Origin: an uncultured Actinomycetes bacterium
Lineage (GTDB): Bacteria; Actinomycetota; Actinomycetes; S36-B12; GCA-2699445
NCBI GenBank assembly: GCA_964510455.1
Contig: CAZECO010000003.1
Coordinates: 1-61,592, forward strand
Direction of reading: 5' to 3'
Length of the DNA: 61,592 nt
Shown one piece after another: positions 1-17,651 of the stretch (within the stretch, counting starts at the first letter, position 1; the number at the start of each line of letters is the position of its first letter). The translations under genes were made by a program, and so were the position numbers. The notes under the pieces were generated by a model that was not told where the DNA came from, did no database searches, and was given only the letters and a program-made list of their open reading frames with translations.

Positions 1-110
1 ATCGGTGTGTTGCCGATCGTCTCCAGCACCGATGACAGGATCTGTGTTCCCGGCAGGTGGACGCGCTGTGTGCCGAACCCTGCGGTTCCCGCTGGGGATT
101 CCTTGATCAC
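1..110 (-). CDS. PLP-dependent cysteine synthase / cystathionine beta-synthase family protein, 5' end only (runs off the left edge)
   Basis: Manual translation from GTG at 110 gives MIKESPAGTAGFGTQRVHLPGTQILSSVLETIGNTP. 'SVLETIGNTP' matches the family N-terminal motif. A GGAAGG RBS lies upstream. Not in the ORF track. Confidence 0.7.
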   Translation of the reverse strand, partial: MIKESPAGTAGFGTQRVHLPGTQILSSVLETIGNTP

Positions 111-124
111 GGAACCTTCCCTTC

Positions 125-259
125 TCAGCAGCACGCAGCTGAGCTGATACCCGGACCCGAGACCGGTGGGGCGAGCGCCGACAGCGCCGGCATTTCGGGC
201 GCATCGCCACGGAAGACCCAGTCCTGATCCTGCGTCAGAGGACCTCGCAACCCCACCAT
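125..259 (-). CDS. Leaderless 44-aa short ORF ending in Cys-Cys, candidate leader/attenuator peptide
   Basis: ATG at 259 in the frame of ORF 125..502 reads MVGLRGPLTQDQDWVFRGDAPEMPALSALAPPVSGPGISSAACC*. A TAATCT -10 box lies 7 nt upstream and the stop is 14 nt before the cysteine-synthase-like start. Confidence 0.55.
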   Translation of the reverse strand: MVGLRGPLTQDQDWVFRGDAPEMPALSALAPPVSGPGISSAACC

Positions 260-266
260 GTATATC

Positions 267-272
267 AGATTA
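267..272 (-). promoter_or_regulatory. -10 element (TAATCT) of a probable leaderless promoter
   Basis: TANNNT hexamer in an AT-rich patch, 7 nt upstream of the ATG at 259. Confidence 0.5.
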
Positions 273-425
273 GTAGACAAACGGGAAGGGTGAAGCCAGG
301 TATGACCTCCCGAGTGAGACTGGAGGGACATGCCCCGAGGGTCGGCAAGCGGTCCCGGGCAGTCCGCATTCCTTCGTGCGGCATCGAGGGCGGCGGGGTA
401 GCGTCGGCGGCGGTACCATCGACGG

Positions 426-1733
426 ATGCGTTCCCCGGGCGGCTCGCCGCCTCCAACGGGGCCCTCGATTGACCCGGCGACCCACGAGGTGACCTTCCGC
501 ATCGGGACGGATGTCCGTTGCCGCCCGAGGCGGGTCTGGTACCACCTGCGGGATCATGGGGCCGATCCCACGTTCCACCTCGAGGGCGTCCAATGGGTCG
601 CCAGGATCCCGAGGCCGCCGGTGGCGCGCATGGAGTACCTGGTGATCATGGAATGGCCGGACGGCACTCAGTCGATGGTGCCCGACCCGACGAACCCGCG
701 ACGGGTGCGCTCCGTCTTCGGCGACAAGTCCGAGATCGAGTTCCCCGGCTACAGCCGGCCTTGGTGGTTGTCGGTCGGCGATGCGGCCGATGCCCAGGCG
801 CGCTGGGACGCGGAGGCCCGAACCTTCGTGCCGGTGGCGGTGCGCACCCCTTCGACACCTCAGGATGACCCCGCCATGCGGGTGCCGGCGGCCGGAGAGG
901 TTGTGGTCTCCGTGCGCACTCGCCCCCGGGACTCCGGCGGCGACGATCGGCGCCACTGGGAGCTGGCGAGCTGGGAGGATTCCCCTGGGGCTCCGGTCCC
1001 TGATCGGCGGACGGCTGAGGTCGTCGATGAAGACGCAGCCGTCGCCATCAGCGGGCAGCTGCACGTGCCCGCTGACTCGACCCCCGCCGCGCCGTTGCCT
1101 CTGCTGGTCGTCCACGACGGTCCCGAGTACGCAGACCTCGCACAACTCCTGCGGTACGTGTCGACCCTGGCCGTTATCGAGCCCGGTCTGCGTTGCCGGG
1201 TACTGCTCCTGCAGCCCATCGACCGCGACCGCAGCTACTCCGCCTCGCCCGCCTATGCCCGGGCCCTCGTGAACGGGATGCTGCCCAGGGTGACCGAGGC
1301 ATTCGCCACGTCCGGGCGGCCCGTGGGGATGGGTGCGAGCCTCGGGGGACTGGCGATGCTGCATGCGGCGACCAGCTACCCCGGTACCTTCGCCGGGGTG
1401 TTCAGCCAGGCCGGATCCTTCTTCCGCCCACGCACGGACGGCATGGAGCGCGGCTTTCGCCACTACGACCGGATAGTGCGCTTCGTCGAGGACCTCGACC
1501 TCGATCCCCACCGCCTGGCCGACCTGCTCGTCAGGCTGACCTGCGGCACCGGCGAGGAGAACCTGGCCAATAACCGGTCGCTGGCGCAGCGACTCAACCG
1601 GCTGGGCGTGGCCGTGGAGCTGGTGGAGAATCCCGACGGGCACAACTACACGGCCTGGCGCGACTGCCTGGACCCCGGCCTGCGCCTGTTGTTGCGCGAG
1701 GCGTGGAACGGGACGGGCATCCCTCCCACCTGA
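426..1733 (+). CDS. Enterochelin-esterase-like alpha/beta hydrolase with an N-terminal extra domain
   Basis: Nucleophile motif GASLGG, 'LLVVHDGPEY', 'GTFAGVFSQAGSF' and C-terminal 'DGHNYTAWRD'. Confidence 0.85.
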   Translation: MRSPGGSPPPTGPSIDPATHEVTFRIGTDVRCRPRRVWYHLRDHGADPTFHLEGVQWVARIPRPPVARMEYLVIMEWPDGTQSMVPDPTNPRRVRSVFGDKSEIEFPGYSRPWWLSVGDAADAQARWDAEARTFVPVAVRTPSTPQDDPAMRVPAAGEVVVSVRTRPRDSGGDDRRHWELASWEDSPGAPVPDRRTAEVVDEDAAVAISGQLHVPADSTPAAPLPLLVVHDGPEYADLAQLLRYVSTLAVIEPGLRCRVLLLQPIDRDRSYSASPAYARALVNGMLPRVTEAFATSGRPVGMGASLGGLAMLHAATSYPGTFAGVFSQAGSFFRPRTDGMERGFRHYDRIVRFVEDLDLDPHRLADLLVRLTCGTGEENLANNRSLAQRLNRLGVAVELVENPDGHNYTAWRDCLDPGLRLLLREAWNGTGIPPT

Positions 1734-2052
1734 TACGCGACAGTGGGCGCATGCAGCGCGACAAGTGGCAGGCGTGGTCCCCCAATGCCTCGGGGTGCCG
1801 GACCACATCATGGCTTCCAGCCGCTGGAGTTTCCGTGCTCCACCTCCGCTGCGAGGGTGGCAGCGCCGACGGCGACCACTTGGCATGGTTGCGCCGCCGG
1901 GTATTCATCCAGCCGGCGGTGGGGACCGGCTCGTTCGAGCATCCGTCCCGGGCGCTGCCGGCCTCACGGCCTCTGGTCCATGCGCCGTGGGTCATGGCAG
2001 GGGATGGCCCAGAAGCACATCGCCACGCTCAGCTGGAAGAACCGGAGGAACC

Positions 2053-3342
2053 ATGGACGGCACCACACGATCCCACCTGGTGGGGCTGCTGCTCGGCACG
2101 GAGGACGACTGGCCGACGGCGTTCGAGTCTCTGGTGCGGGCCCTCGGCCCGATCCCGGACGGGCGCGGCACGTCCCACAGGATCACGACCGAACGCACGA
2201 CGATCGAGCCCTTCAACCTTCGAGACCGGCCCCGTCAGGAGTTGGTGATCGACCGGTTGGCCTACTGGTACTACGTGCCCCGCGAGTGGTTGAAGAAGGT
2301 CGCCCTGATGGACGACGTGTACCTGCTCAACAACCCCTTCACGTTCCAGTCGATGGAGAAGCATTCCGCCTACTGCGCGATGATGCGGCTGGGGATGAAG
2401 ATCCCCGAGACCGTGCTGGTTCCCTACAAGAACCCGTTGGACCATGCCAAGTACGCCTACACCGCCGAGCGCTACAACGTGCCCTTCGACCTTGCCGCGC
2501 TCGCCGACGAGGTGGGCTATCCGATGTACATGAAGCCCTTCGACGGGTCGGGCTGGCGGGGCGTTTCGCGCATCGACACGCCGGCCGGCCTGTTCCGCGC
2601 CTACGACGACTCCGGCGAGATGCTGATGCACCTGCAGGCTGCCGAACCCTACGATGTCTTCGCTCGGTCGCTGTCCATCGGACCGGAGACGATGGTCATG
2701 CACTTCCTTCCCGAGCAACCGATGCACGCCCGGTACGCGGTGGACCACAACTTCCTCTCAGCCCAGGCCGGCGACGAGTGCGTCACGATCAGTCGGACGG
2801 TGAACGCCTTCTTCCGGTGGGAGTTCAACTCCTGCGAGATGCTGGTCAGGCGCGGGGCCGATGGTGGACCCGACCAGGTGTTCCCGATCGACTTTGCCAA
2901 CGCCTGTCCGGACGTGGCGATCACTTCGCTGCAGTACTACTTCCCCTGGGCGATGAAAGCGCTGGTCAGGTGGAGCGCCTACTGCCTGGTCACCGAAAGG
3001 CCCACCACGGTGGACATGCAGACCTCCCGGTACTACGAGATAGCCGACCGTGAGGACCTCACATACGAGGAGAAGCTGCCTGGCTACCGGAGGCTCGCGG
3101 ACGAGTACTTCGACGCGGACCGGTACCAGGATTGGTGCGATGCCCGGCTGCGCGACTTCGACGAGATCGCGCTGGAGTGGTTCAGCGGCGCCGAGATGGA
3201 CGCCGTGATCGTCGACACCGTCCGCGCGACCTTCCCGCCGCATGAGCACGACCAGTTCATCGAGCACTACCGGGGCCTGATCGGCTTGTGGTGCCAAGAC
3301 GAGCAGGTGCGCCTGATTCGAGCGGCCGTCGCCGACGCGTGA
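2053..3342 (+). CDS. ATP-grasp domain protein (RimK/glutathione-synthetase-like amidoligase family)
   Basis: ATG at 2053 with a GGAGG RBS. Motifs include 'LLNNPF', 'MKIPETVLVP', 'GYPMYMKPFDGSGWRGVSRI', 'WEFNSCE' and 'IDFANACPD'. Confidence 0.85.
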   Translation: MDGTTRSHLVGLLLGTEDDWPTAFESLVRALGPIPDGRGTSHRITTERTTIEPFNLRDRPRQELVIDRLAYWYYVPREWLKKVALMDDVYLLNNPFTFQSMEKHSAYCAMMRLGMKIPETVLVPYKNPLDHAKYAYTAERYNVPFDLAALADEVGYPMYMKPFDGSGWRGVSRIDTPAGLFRAYDDSGEMLMHLQAAEPYDVFARSLSIGPETMVMHFLPEQPMHARYAVDHNFLSAQAGDECVTISRTVNAFFRWEFNSCEMLVRRGADGGPDQVFPIDFANACPDVAITSLQYYFPWAMKALVRWSAYCLVTERPTTVDMQTSRYYEIADREDLTYEEKLPGYRRLADEYFDADRYQDWCDARLRDFDEIALEWFSGAEMDAVIVDTVRATFPPHEHDQFIEHYRGLIGLWCQDEQVRLIRAAVADA

Positions 3343-3724: not shown

Positions 3725-4100
3725 ATGGCAAGCAATCACGGCCTCGGTCGGCCGGCGCTGCGGCCGCTGCTGGCTGAACTCGCTTCAGATCAGGATCCGG
3801 AGCACTTCCTGCGGTACGACCTGCGACGCATGCGAGGTCTGGGATCGGCCGCACATTGGGTTCCCGCCAGCCTCGACCATCCGCTGCTCGGTCCCCTTGT
3901 GGCTGCACTGACGGGTAAGCCGAATGTGATGGCGGCTGCATCGCGGCACGGGGACCCGTTGGTCCGACTCGGACTGGTGGGCAACCCCGCGGTGCATGCG
4001 GACACGGTCCAGGCGCTGCTGGGGGACCTGGAGTCGGACGTCCATTGCACCGCGGGAGCGCGTCATGGGTGCGCTGATGGTGGCGTAGGGCCAACTGGCA
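3725..4100 (+). pseudogene. Possible fragment of a helical-repeat (LRV/HEAT-like) protein
   Basis: 'DPLVRLGLVGNPAVHADTVQALLGDLESDVH' looks repeat-like; the rest of the ORF does not look like real coding sequence. Confidence 0.25.
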
Positions 4101-16542: not shown

Positions 16543-17651
16543 CCGCGCCGGCGATCACCGCCCGCGGACCCATCACGGCCGGCACGCGGACGACGATTCC
16601 CCGGCGCCGCCTGGTGCTTCTGGGCCTCGGTGGGATCAGCCTGCTGGCCGGGCTGAACGCGGGCCTGCTGCTTGCCGGCCTACCGGCCCCGATCCGCCTC
16701 GAACGGCTCGAGGCCGTGCACGGACCGCTGATGCTGCTGGGCTTCCTCGGCACCCTCATCGCCCTGGAGCGCGCCATCGCGCTGCGCACCCGGTGGGCGC
16801 TGCTGGCCCCGGGGCTGCTGGGCGGGGGCGGGCTCCTGCTCATCTCGCCGCTCCCGGAGTCCGCCGGCCACGCCGCCCAGACGCTGGGCGCGGCCGCGCT
16901 CTTCGGGGTGTACGCCGCGCTGTGGCGCCGCGGCGGGTCGGAGGCGCTGCTGATCCAGTGGCTCGGGTCGGTGCTCGCGGTGAGCTCGGCATTGCTGTGG
17001 TGGGCCGGGATCCCGACCGGTGCGATCCTGCCCTGCATCGCCGGATTCCTGGTGCTGACGATCGCCGGGGAGCGGCTGGAGTTGGCCCGCGTCGGCGGCC
17101 CGGACCCCGGGGCGGTGCGGCAGTTCGCGATCGCCACCACGCTGGCGGTCCCGCTCGCCGGGGCGGCGCTGCTGTGGCCCACGCCCGGCACGGAGCTGTT
17201 CGCCGGGACGCTGCTGGTCATCGCGGCCTGGTTGGCCCGACACGACGTGGCCGTGCGCCTCGTGCGGGGCACCGGGCTGCCGCGGTACGTGGCGGTGAAC
17301 ATCCTGGCCGGGATCGCGTGGCTGGCGGTCTGCGGGCTCACGCTCCTGCTGCTGGGTCCGCAGCACGACGGACCCGGGTACGACCTTGCGATCCACGCGG
17401 TCGGCCTGGGGTTCGCGATGTCGATGGTGCTGGCGCACGCCCCGATCATCCTGCCGGCGGTCCTGCTGCGGCCCCTGCCGTACCGGCCGGTCCTGTACGC
17501 CGCGACCGTGCTGCTGCAGGGCTCCCTGCTGCTGCGCGCCGCCGCGGATGTGCGCGAGCTCGGGTGGGCGTGGCAGGCCGGCAGCGCGCTCAACGTGGTC
17601 GCGGTGCTGGCGTTCCTGCTGATCTCCGTGACCCTGGTGGTGCGGCGATGA
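16539..17651 (+). CDS. Polytopic membrane protein with intramembrane His (NnrS-like)
   Basis: About 12 hydrophobic segments, 'HGPLMLLGFLGTLIALERA' and 'HAVGLGF..MVLAHAPIILP'. GTG overlaps the upstream stop. Confidence 0.75.
   Translation: MTAPAITARGPITAGTRTTIPRRRLVLLGLGGISLLAGLNAGLLLAGLPAPIRLERLEAVHGPLMLLGFLGTLIALERAIALRTRWALLAPGLLGGGGLLLISPLPESAGHAAQTLGAAALFGVYAALWRRGGSEALLIQWLGSVLAVSSALLWWAGIPTGAILPCIAGFLVLTIAGERLELARVGGPDPGAVRQFAIATTLAVPLAGAALLWPTPGTELFAGTLLVIAAWLARHDVAVRLVRGTGLPRYVAVNILAGIAWLAVCGLTLLLLGPQHDGPGYDLAIHAVGLGFAMSMVLAHAPIILPAVLLRPLPYRPVLYAATVLLQGSLLLRAAADVRELGWAWQAGSALNVVAVLAFLLISVTLVVRR

Follow-up and report, generated by a model that had tools for sequence, protein, structure and literature searches.

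A candidate Cys-tRNA-sensing leaderless upstream ORF of atypical geometry ahead of a cbs-CGL operon in an Acidimicrobiales genome

In a 61,592-nt stretch of DNA from an uncultured actinobacterium (GenBank assembly GCA_964510455.1, contig CAZECO010000003.1; this whole stretch is called the window below), we analysed a short open reading frame (sORF), MVGLRGPLTQDQDWVFRGDAPEMPALSALAPPVSGPGISSAACC, that ends in two consecutive Cys codons and forms, with a predicted leaderless start, the first cistron ahead of an operon of cysteine metabolism, cbs-CGL, which encodes the methionine-to-cysteine enzyme pair. With a probability that we put at about 0.55, this sORF is a Cys-tRNA-sensing leaderless upstream ORF of the known polycysteine kind, built with an atypical geometry. 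Ribosomes would load on the 5'-terminal AUG and translate 42 codons of the sORF, after which passage over UGC-UGC-UGA would depend on charged tRNA-Cys. Only 14 nt, which include the Shine-Dalgarno (SD) sequence, separate the sORF stop from the cbs GUG, so that where the ribosome stands at this junction would set the frequency of cbs initiation, with no part for a terminator or for a duplex between the Cys tract and the SD. We infer the transcription start, the translation of the sORF, the pausing at its Cys codons and any effect on cbs from sequence.

A preliminary description of the locus had proposed a cysteine-responsive attenuator like those of mycobacteria. Part of that proposal stands, as the cysteine operon, the leaderless promoter geometry, a conserved sister leader at sir-cysH and a polycysteine leader at a cbs ortholog (locus L253) all favour it, whereas the mechanism of the mycobacterial prototype Ms5788A does not fit. 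The kind is already known, having been predicted in 2005, including for a cbs gene (PMC1262725), and demonstrated in 2020 (Canestrari et al. 2020, 10.1101/834739); the present sORF would probably add to it a new member, minimal and unusual in its layout, from another class of actinobacteria.

Frequency of Cys-Cys sORFs in the host genome

The host genome was scanned for TANNNT boxes followed after 5-8 nt by ATG or GTG, in non-genic DNA, where the start codon opened an ORF that held Cys-Cys and was no longer than 80 codons. Such leaderless-type sORFs gave seven matches in 3.9 Mb, or ~0.001 per upstream region. One match was a masked-base artefact and three preceded unrelated or unknown genes, while the remaining three preceded sulfur or cysteine operons, namely cbs-CGL, sir-cysH (contig C22) and CDO_I-rhodanese (contig C112), against a chance expectation of ~0.01 to 0.04 such matches before roughly 10 sulfur/cysteine operons. 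The sORF ahead of cbs was the only leaderless-type Cys-Cys sORF in the genome with Cys as its final two codons. The Cys-codon frequency in non-genic DNA was ~0.03; the probability of Cys-Cys as the last two codons is ~0.001, and that of Cys-Cys anywhere in 44 codons is ~0.04. No Cys-Cys sORF was found at the host's cysK-cysE, at its second, leaderless cysK, at the cysM-like gene behind a CysO-like carrier or at cysD; the second cysK copy carries TAGGCT, 7 nt and ATG (contig C140, around position 706).

Within non-genic DNA, Cys-Cys-stop fell within 30 nt upstream of a gene start about three times as often as other dipeptide-stops (7/37 cases, compared with 6.2%; p = 0.007). A regulon defined by Cys-Cys-stop next to gene starts was considered and rejected, none of the seven genes being cysteine-related; they encode a lipoprotein, a DoxX-like protein, an ABC ATPase, an L,D-transpeptidase-like protein, an aquaporin, an acetyltransferase and a transposase.

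Polycysteine leaders in related genomes

The sir-cysH sORF of the host, MSLPATTVSALGRWMCSCMRTDMCCCA, begins with ATG 6 nt after a TACTCT box (C22, positions 17208-17291, minus strand; the same as locus L217, positions 3209-3292) and lies 120 nt ahead of an operon of sulfite reductase (NIR_SIR) and cysH (PAPS_reduct). Equivalent sir sORFs occurred in 19/29 related Acidimicrobiales genomes, ending 86-198 nt before the aligned sir start, and all 19 had a [T/C]ANNNT box 6-8 nt 5' of the start codon; their C-terminal endings include ...MCCCMCCCA, ...RCCMCCCS, ...CLCCA and ...MRCC, each followed directly by the stop. Because the sir-cysH sORF is kept in 19 of these 29 genomes together with its -10 box, it is, on this comparative evidence, real, and Acidimicrobiales use polycysteine leaderless sORFs. 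Its functional counterpart in Mycobacterium smegmatis is the sirA leader Ms4527A (...ARRHVDKRVCSCCCLP).

A polycysteine leader also precedes cbs itself in L253, a Logan contig (run SRR28011710) whose cbs is 83% identical to that of the host. This leader, MTTATDRVTSTSVVRRRVDLCRICACCA, occupies positions 1300-1386, 114 nt before the cbs ATG, and its Cys-region sequence GCAUCUGCG is a perfect 9-nt complement of CGCAGAUGC, which spans the cbs start codon; the leader is apparently an Ms5788A-like translational attenuator design on a cbs operon. L253 was the sole cbs locus with a canonical polycysteine leader among ~188 examined (a polycysteine sORF was present at 0/186 others for which 150 nt or more of sequence lay upstream), and its sORF is unrelated in sequence to that of the host.

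Just before the Cys run, an RRxVDLC-type motif was observed in the L253 leader (VVRRRVDLCRIC...) and in L230, a sir leader of genome G037 (VVRRHVDLCLMC...); the same type of motif is found in the mycobacterial leaders Ms5788A (KRRAVDLCRVAGCCCC...) and Ms4527A (ARRHVDKRVCSCCC...; Table S1 of 10.1101/834739). That mycobacterial and Acidimicrobiia leaders have it in common could point to common descent or to a constraint on the nascent peptide or the RNA. The conserved sir-cysH leader, the canonical cbs leader of L253 and the shared motif appear more solid than the reading of the host sORF, of which they are by-products.

At the third sulfur/cysteine operon (C112, positions 3727-3909, plus strand), a strong predicted promoter, with TTGACG, 16 nt, TACCAT and 6 nt, precedes the ATG of a 60-codon ORF, MTDRKRVQRSRPVMPMSMCCRRPRP.... 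A VMPM..MCC segment of this ORF resembles the sir leaders of relatives, and the ORF crosses the SD and ATG of a cysteine-dioxygenase-like (CDO_I) gene, which is followed by a rhodanese gene.

The cbs-CGL locus and its host

The gene downstream of the sORF encodes a cystathionine beta-synthase of 475 aa with a PALP domain and two CBS domains, and is followed, with an 8-nt gene overlap, by a Cys_Met_Meta_PP enzyme of the cystathionine gamma-lyase/synthase (CGL/MetB) type. The gene, which the preliminary description placed in the cysteine-synthase family, does not encode an O-acetylserine sulfhydrylase; the link to cysteine is borne out by both genes. The TAATCT box 7 nt before an ATG, the 44 codons running to TGC TGC TGA and the 14-nt gap holding a ribosome-binding site are all present on the minus strand, and every coordinate given for them was correct (Table 1). 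The order on that strand is TTGTCTAC-TAATCT-GATATAC-ATG, with GATATAC as the 7-nt gap. The ORF measures 132 nt without its stop. The cbs SD lies in the 14-nt gap, GAAGGGAAGGTTCC (positions 124-111), that leads from this stop to the cbs GTG. The cbs gene begins GTG ATC AAG and encodes ...SSVLETIGNTP.

Table 1. Predicted features of the sORF-cbs junction and the divergent promoter (positions in the window)
Feature	Position	Strand	Basis or remark
-10 promoter box TAATCT (TANNNT type), predicted	267..272	minus	read directly in the sequence
ATG start of the sORF and predicted transcription start (A259; A261 also possible)	257..259	minus	-10 spacing and genome-wide leaderless geometry
44-codon sORF plus stop, MVGLRGPLTQDQDWVFRGDAPEMPALSALAPPVSGPGISSAACC	125..259	minus	read in the sequence
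Consecutive Cys codons TGC TGC (codons 43-44)	128..133 (133-131, 130-128)	minus	directly before TGA 127-125
SD of cbs, GGGAAGG	115..121	minus	4 nt 5' of GTG
5' part of cbs, GTG start 110-108, opening VIKESPAGTAGFGTQRVHLPGTQILSSVLETIGNTP	1..110	minus	rest of the gene on contig C171
TACCAT, 6 nt, then ATG 426 of the divergent esterase gene	414..428	plus	second leaderless promoter; TACCAT at 414-419

The window opens at a contig end, and a 55-bp overlap joins it to contig C171, where cbs continues. Four independently assembled Logan contigs from other runs (SRR16797978, SRR16797999, SRR16798008 and SRR16798009) span this contig junction, encode an identical protein and have an identical leader; among these four same-species contigs a single site varied, upstream of the promoter. 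Orthologs whose cbs is 86% identical confirm the GTG at 110 as the start: their GTG likewise stands 15 codons before a conserved RVHLPGT with synonymous-only changes thereafter, and these orthologs have a GGAAGG or GGAG box ahead of the cbs start (GGAAGG in L266).

The host is a metagenome-assembled genome of Acidimicrobiales (69.8% GC, 526 contigs, 3.9 Mb, ~3,060 predicted genes), which agrees with the earlier placement in an actinobacterial lineage other than mycobacteria. In the same-genus and same-family genomes (G001-G015) no cbs ortholog was found, the matches being CysK-like only (42-46% identity), and a CDO-like gene was likewise absent from all same-family genomes in this set. By this distribution the cbs-CGL and CDO operons are accessory in the host genome; the composition of contigs C3, C22 and C112 is typical of the bin.

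Conservation, coding signal and the possibility of an incidental ORF

A number of observations speak against a cysteine-sensing role for the host sORF. It has only two Cys codons, and MVGLRGPLTQDQDWVFRGDAPEMPALSALAPPVSGPGISSAACC lacks the RRxVDLC motif (Arg-Arg-x-Val-Asp-Leu/Lys a few residues before the Cys run). Neither the sORF nor its leader DNA had a counterpart in 40 relatives, in which only chance DNA matches were obtained, and the sORF was found at none of the other ~195 cbs loci examined, so nothing indicates that purifying selection acts on the Cys codons; the terminal Cys codons that had been expected to be conserved at orthologous loci were not, the sORF being absent from every relative. 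Since the leader is identical in all four same-species contigs, these say nothing about selection. What stands upstream of cbs in the 86% orthologs is a gene for an Rrf2-family regulator and not a Cys sORF. No terminator-like site was found in window 1-1000 and no Rfam match, including SAM or other riboswitches, in window 1-3000 at E up to 1, and shuffled versions of the leader fold as well as the real one (z = -0.2 and +0.5). When the fold was constrained by ribosome footprints, opening the cbs start region cost 11.6 kcal/mol with the RNA free, 13.1 with a ribosome at the first Cys codon (Cys1), 11.2 at the second (Cys2) and 8.7 at the stop, and by analogy with known stalling systems a pause on the Cys codons should occlude the cbs start for as long as it lasts. 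Finally, the 7-nt spacing between TANNNT and ATG is barely to weakly enriched among short non-genic ORFs, so that the -10 geometry alone proves little.

Alignment of the host leader with the leaders of the 83% and 86% orthologs gave no meaningful similarity. In the 86% orthologs (L252, L266 and L267), cbs-CGL lies directly after an ABC permease gene and the Rrf2-family regulator gene, without a Cys sORF, and among the orthologs of 56-78% identity no such sORF lies upstream of cbs. At 75-78% identity cbs is mostly plain leaderless, with TANNNT 6-7 nt before the cbs ATG in L254, L255, L257 and L261-L263. The stretches concerned are positions 345-830 of L266 and 353-916 of L267, in both of which cbs is 86% identical to the host gene. 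The 86% orthologs also have a conserved mini-ORF of 7-8 codons, (V)MEGPHRE, (V)MEWSTL or (V)MDWSAM followed by a stop, that overlaps the cbs SD and start codon. Cys-rich frames seen before cbs in Nocardioidaceae (QLACCSCCPH...) and Propionibacteriaceae (CACCPT...) were rejected as off-frames of conserved neighbouring genes; they trace to a divergent gene (its N-terminus) and to an upstream gene for a membrane protein (its C-terminus).

These results bear chiefly on the alternative that the mRNA starts at A259 and its AUG is translated, but that the frame and its Cys-Cys are due to chance, with cysteine control exerted by a protein regulator or not at all. We regard this as a serious possibility, though not the probable one. 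Apart from the lack of conservation in any relative, the restriction to two Cys codons and the fact that most 75-78% orthologs express cbs leaderless without any leader, it is favoured by the weak coding signal: the sORF frame scores best of the six frames, at -0.01 per codon, a value near the 7th percentile of real genes. A chance origin also agrees with the missing structural switch, the ordinary cost of opening the start and a geometry unfavourable for derepression; moreover, very many windows were screened initially, so that some chance Cys-Cys ORFs before cysteine genes are to be expected. Against chance stand the low probabilities of Cys-Cys, terminal or anywhere in the frame, and the genome-wide rarity of such sORFs, 3/7 of which precede sulfur or cysteine operons. 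The nearest orthologs with upstream elements argue in the same direction, L253 having a polycysteine leader and L266 and L267 the Rrf2-family gene; because of these two kinds of element, the cbs clade is, as far as its upstream sequences indicate, one that carries dedicated regulatory elements of differing kinds, one of them cysteine-specific.

Promoter and predicted transcription start

Over the whole genome, candidate gene starts with TANNNT at a distance of exactly 6 nt numbered 279 and those with it at 7 nt 147, compared with ~14 at any other spacing, and about 400 of the ~3,060 predicted genes had TANNNT 6 or 7 nt 5' of the start codon. Leaderless mRNAs are therefore apparently very common in this genome. 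TAATCT is the sole TANNNT on the minus (cbs) strand within window 1-1830, and it lies inside the GC minimum of the 315-bp divergent intergenic region between cbs and the esterase gene (0.40, against 0.70 for the genome), the only AT-rich island there (257-280). Since the esterase gene has a leaderless promoter of its own, this island is left for cbs. From the single -10 box on the strand, the GC trough and the separate esterase promoter, the best reading is a start at A259 (or A261), and the cbs-CGL mRNA most likely begins at or within 2 nt of A259.

If instead the cbs transcript started elsewhere, or the AUG were unused, there would be no sORF, and positions 125-272 would be an untranslated promoter and 5'-UTR. 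We consider this improbable. A sigma-70 consensus scan of window 1-1000 found no promoter, and the weak spacing signal among short non-genic ORFs points the same way, but the strand has no other -10-like box than TAATCT between cbs and the divergent gene, TAATCT sits in the AT-rich island, and the 6-7 nt spacing rule of the host genome is very strong. A 5'-terminal AUG is reported to be enough by itself for robust translation in a study that showed this, within the actinobacteria, for mycobacteria only (10.1101/834739).

RNA structure and direction of control

The opening cost of the free cbs start region is ordinary, being below the median of 13.7 kcal/mol for 80 SD-led genes of the host genome. 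The cbs SD is partly paired in a local hairpin (-11.6 kcal/mol) with cbs codons 4-6 and not with the Cys codons, which lie 5 nt from it. We examined this hairpin as a structural switch and rejected it, in view of the sub-median opening cost and the lack of any gain in accessibility from ribosome footprints. The minimum-free-energy structure has the Cys codons paired with cbs codons 6-13, closing a compound fold round the start region. With Cys1 or Cys2 in the A site, the P site of a ribosome would lie 26 or 23 nt from the cbs GUG, and the footprint for Cys2 covers 3/7 SD bases. Collided ribosomes need a spacing of ~27-30 nt, and systems in which a stall unmasks the SD (erm, cat, mifM, secM) have ~35-40 nt or more between the pause site and the downstream start; a pause at 23-26 nt should for that reason occlude the cbs start. 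On the plus strand the GC skew is below zero at 101-140 and 181-270 and above zero at 141-180; most of the sORF is accordingly G-rich in the minus-strand RNA. Since rut sites require C in excess of G, a rut site is not favoured in the leader.

An attenuator of the Ms5788A type, in which the vacated Cys tract would hide the cbs SD when cysteine is replete and a stalled ribosome would unmask it, is disfavoured and very improbable at this locus. In its favour, the mechanism has been proven for Ms5788A (10.1101/834739), the L253 ortholog apparently uses it, and the pairing of the Cys codons with cbs codons 6-13 might serve it. Against it, the SD pairs locally and not with the Cys codons, opening costs are not reduced by placing a ribosome on either Cys codon (13.1 for Cys1 and 11.2 for Cys2 vs 11.6 kcal/mol), and both the P-site-to-GUG distance and the partial cover of the SD are adverse.

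If the sORF is a Cys-tRNA sensor, the sign of its control has to be read from conflicting indications. Derepression, with more CBS made when cysteine is short, is suggested by physiology and by the L253 ortholog, and we regard it as possible; it would have to act by a route other than SD unmasking, for example through a paused ribosome that shields the mRNA from 5'-3' decay or Rho. The proposal that the element attenuates by derepression on cysteine shortage was not borne out by the locus, which has no spacer, no terminator and no Cys-tract:SD duplex and whose opening cost does not fall with a ribosome on the Cys codons. The geometry points to occlusion rather than derepression. The opposite sign, gating by completion, in which a paused ribosome would block the cbs start whereas a finished sORF would leave a terminating ribosome 14 nt from it, is in our view slightly less probable but is the sign that the geometry suggests. 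An inverse cysteine sensor produced by geometry alone, with a ribosome waiting for Cys-tRNA blocking cbs and only sORF-completing ribosomes handing over, seems to us unlikely. Were it true, cbs-CGL, whose products are able to consume cysteine and release H2S, would be translated only with charged Cys-tRNA, while the sir-cysH leader of the same genome would derepress sulfate assimilation when Cys-tRNA is uncharged, so that one signal would have opposite outputs by operon, set only by the distance from the Cys codons to the next start. The CDO_I-rhodanese sORF, which runs across the start of its gene, might be a third layout. With the sORF end abutting cbs, the locus is well suited to showing cleanly whether regulation changes sign with the distance between pause site and start codon.

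Relation to known systems

Polycysteine leaderless sORF attenuators of mycobacteria form a "Cys ribulon" that includes Ms5788A/Rv0815A, Ms4527A, Ms4533A, Ms5280A and Rv2334A; in Ms5788A of M. smegmatis the SD of the next gene, beyond a 97-nt spacer, is held in a duplex with the polycysteine tract and is released when a ribosome stalls for want of Cys-tRNA. Two consecutive Cys codons are enough in M. smegmatis, as in Ms4533A (...AHCCR) and Ms5280A (...GCCRAQ). The authors describe independent gain and loss of these sORFs (Canestrari et al. 2020, 10.1101/834739), and lack of conservation therefore lowers the support for the host sORF without excluding its membership. Like the members of the ribulon, the host sORF is an unannotated short ORF at a predicted leaderless mRNA 5' end, has two or more Cys codons in a row at or close to its C-terminus, heads a cysteine/sulfur operon as first cistron, and is lineage-specific and apparently independently evolved; as in Ms5788A, the stop directly follows the Cys run. 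It differs from the ribulon in having two Cys codons only and neither a Cys-tract:SD duplex nor a stable leader structure, in its target (cbs-CGL, reverse transsulfuration) and its host (Acidimicrobiia), and in being a prediction that has no counterpart in relatives. Its stop is 14 nt from the next start, compared with the 97-nt spacer of Ms5788A.

The host sORF also resembles the leaders predicted by Seliverstov et al. in 2005, which are short ORFs with Cys codons near the stop and no recognisable terminator, and whose predicted targets include an actinobacterial cbs gene; those authors proposed a tna-like, Rho-dependent mechanism (PMC1262725). Their predictions rested on conservation among related genomes, whereas the host sORF is a singleton. 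Closer at hand are the Acidimicrobiales leaders described above (sir-cysH in the host and 18 relatives, cbs in L253). They belong to the same order, have a -10 box 6-8 nt before the start, a C-terminal Cys run and sulfur/cysteine targets, and include an orthologous operon (L253) and a leader from the same genome (sir-cysH). Unlike the host sORF, they have 3-7 Cys codons, usually one more residue (Ala or Ser) before the stop and a spacer of 80-200 nt; some have RRxVDLC, and L253 has a 9-bp complement between the Cys region and the start. As in trpL/hisL of enterobacteria and the ilvB1 leader of M. tuberculosis (PMC13236596), codons for the end product lie in a leader ORF, whose translation is predicted here; unlike the trpL type, cbs has no terminator/antiterminator pair, and 14 nt from stop to start leave no room for one. 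The arrangement of a stop, a 14-nt gap with an SD and a start is also that of ordinary translational coupling by termination-reinitiation, in which gaps of 10-20 nt hold the SD, but at an ordinary junction the upstream cistron is not a 44-codon predicted leaderless ORF ending in two codons read by the tRNA of the pathway product.

If the cysteine-sensing reading is true, a ribosome-based cysteine ribulon would extend from mycobacteria to Acidimicrobiia and to reverse transsulfuration, and such sensors would arise cheaply, from a leaderless AUG plus two Cys codons. The cbs operons of close relatives have three other layouts, with an Rrf2 gene upstream, a canonical polycysteine leader or no leader. 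Should the sORF be a product of chance, it would mark the floor below which Cys-Cys ahead of a cysteine gene no longer counts as evidence.

Other observations at the locus

The sORF frame is open further upstream to an ATG at 502, giving a 125-aa ORF, and the 44-codon ORF therefore exists only if transcription begins near 259. We rejected the longer ORF as a real gene: its coding score is negative (-0.29 per codon over the 81 upstream codons, i.e. non-coding), it overlaps the esterase promoter, and neither the upstream 81 codons nor the sORF peptide had a Pfam match. A frameshift from the sORF into cbs was likewise rejected, there being no slippery site, and a GTG (134-132) that overlaps the first Cys codon has no SD. 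The cbs frame is open across the whole sORF; at 70% GC, open stretches of 50 codons are nothing unusual. A second TGA in the sORF frame lies five codons past the first and overlaps the cbs start as GTGA (window 105-127, minus strand); read-through of the first sORF stop would thus terminate exactly on the cbs start codon.

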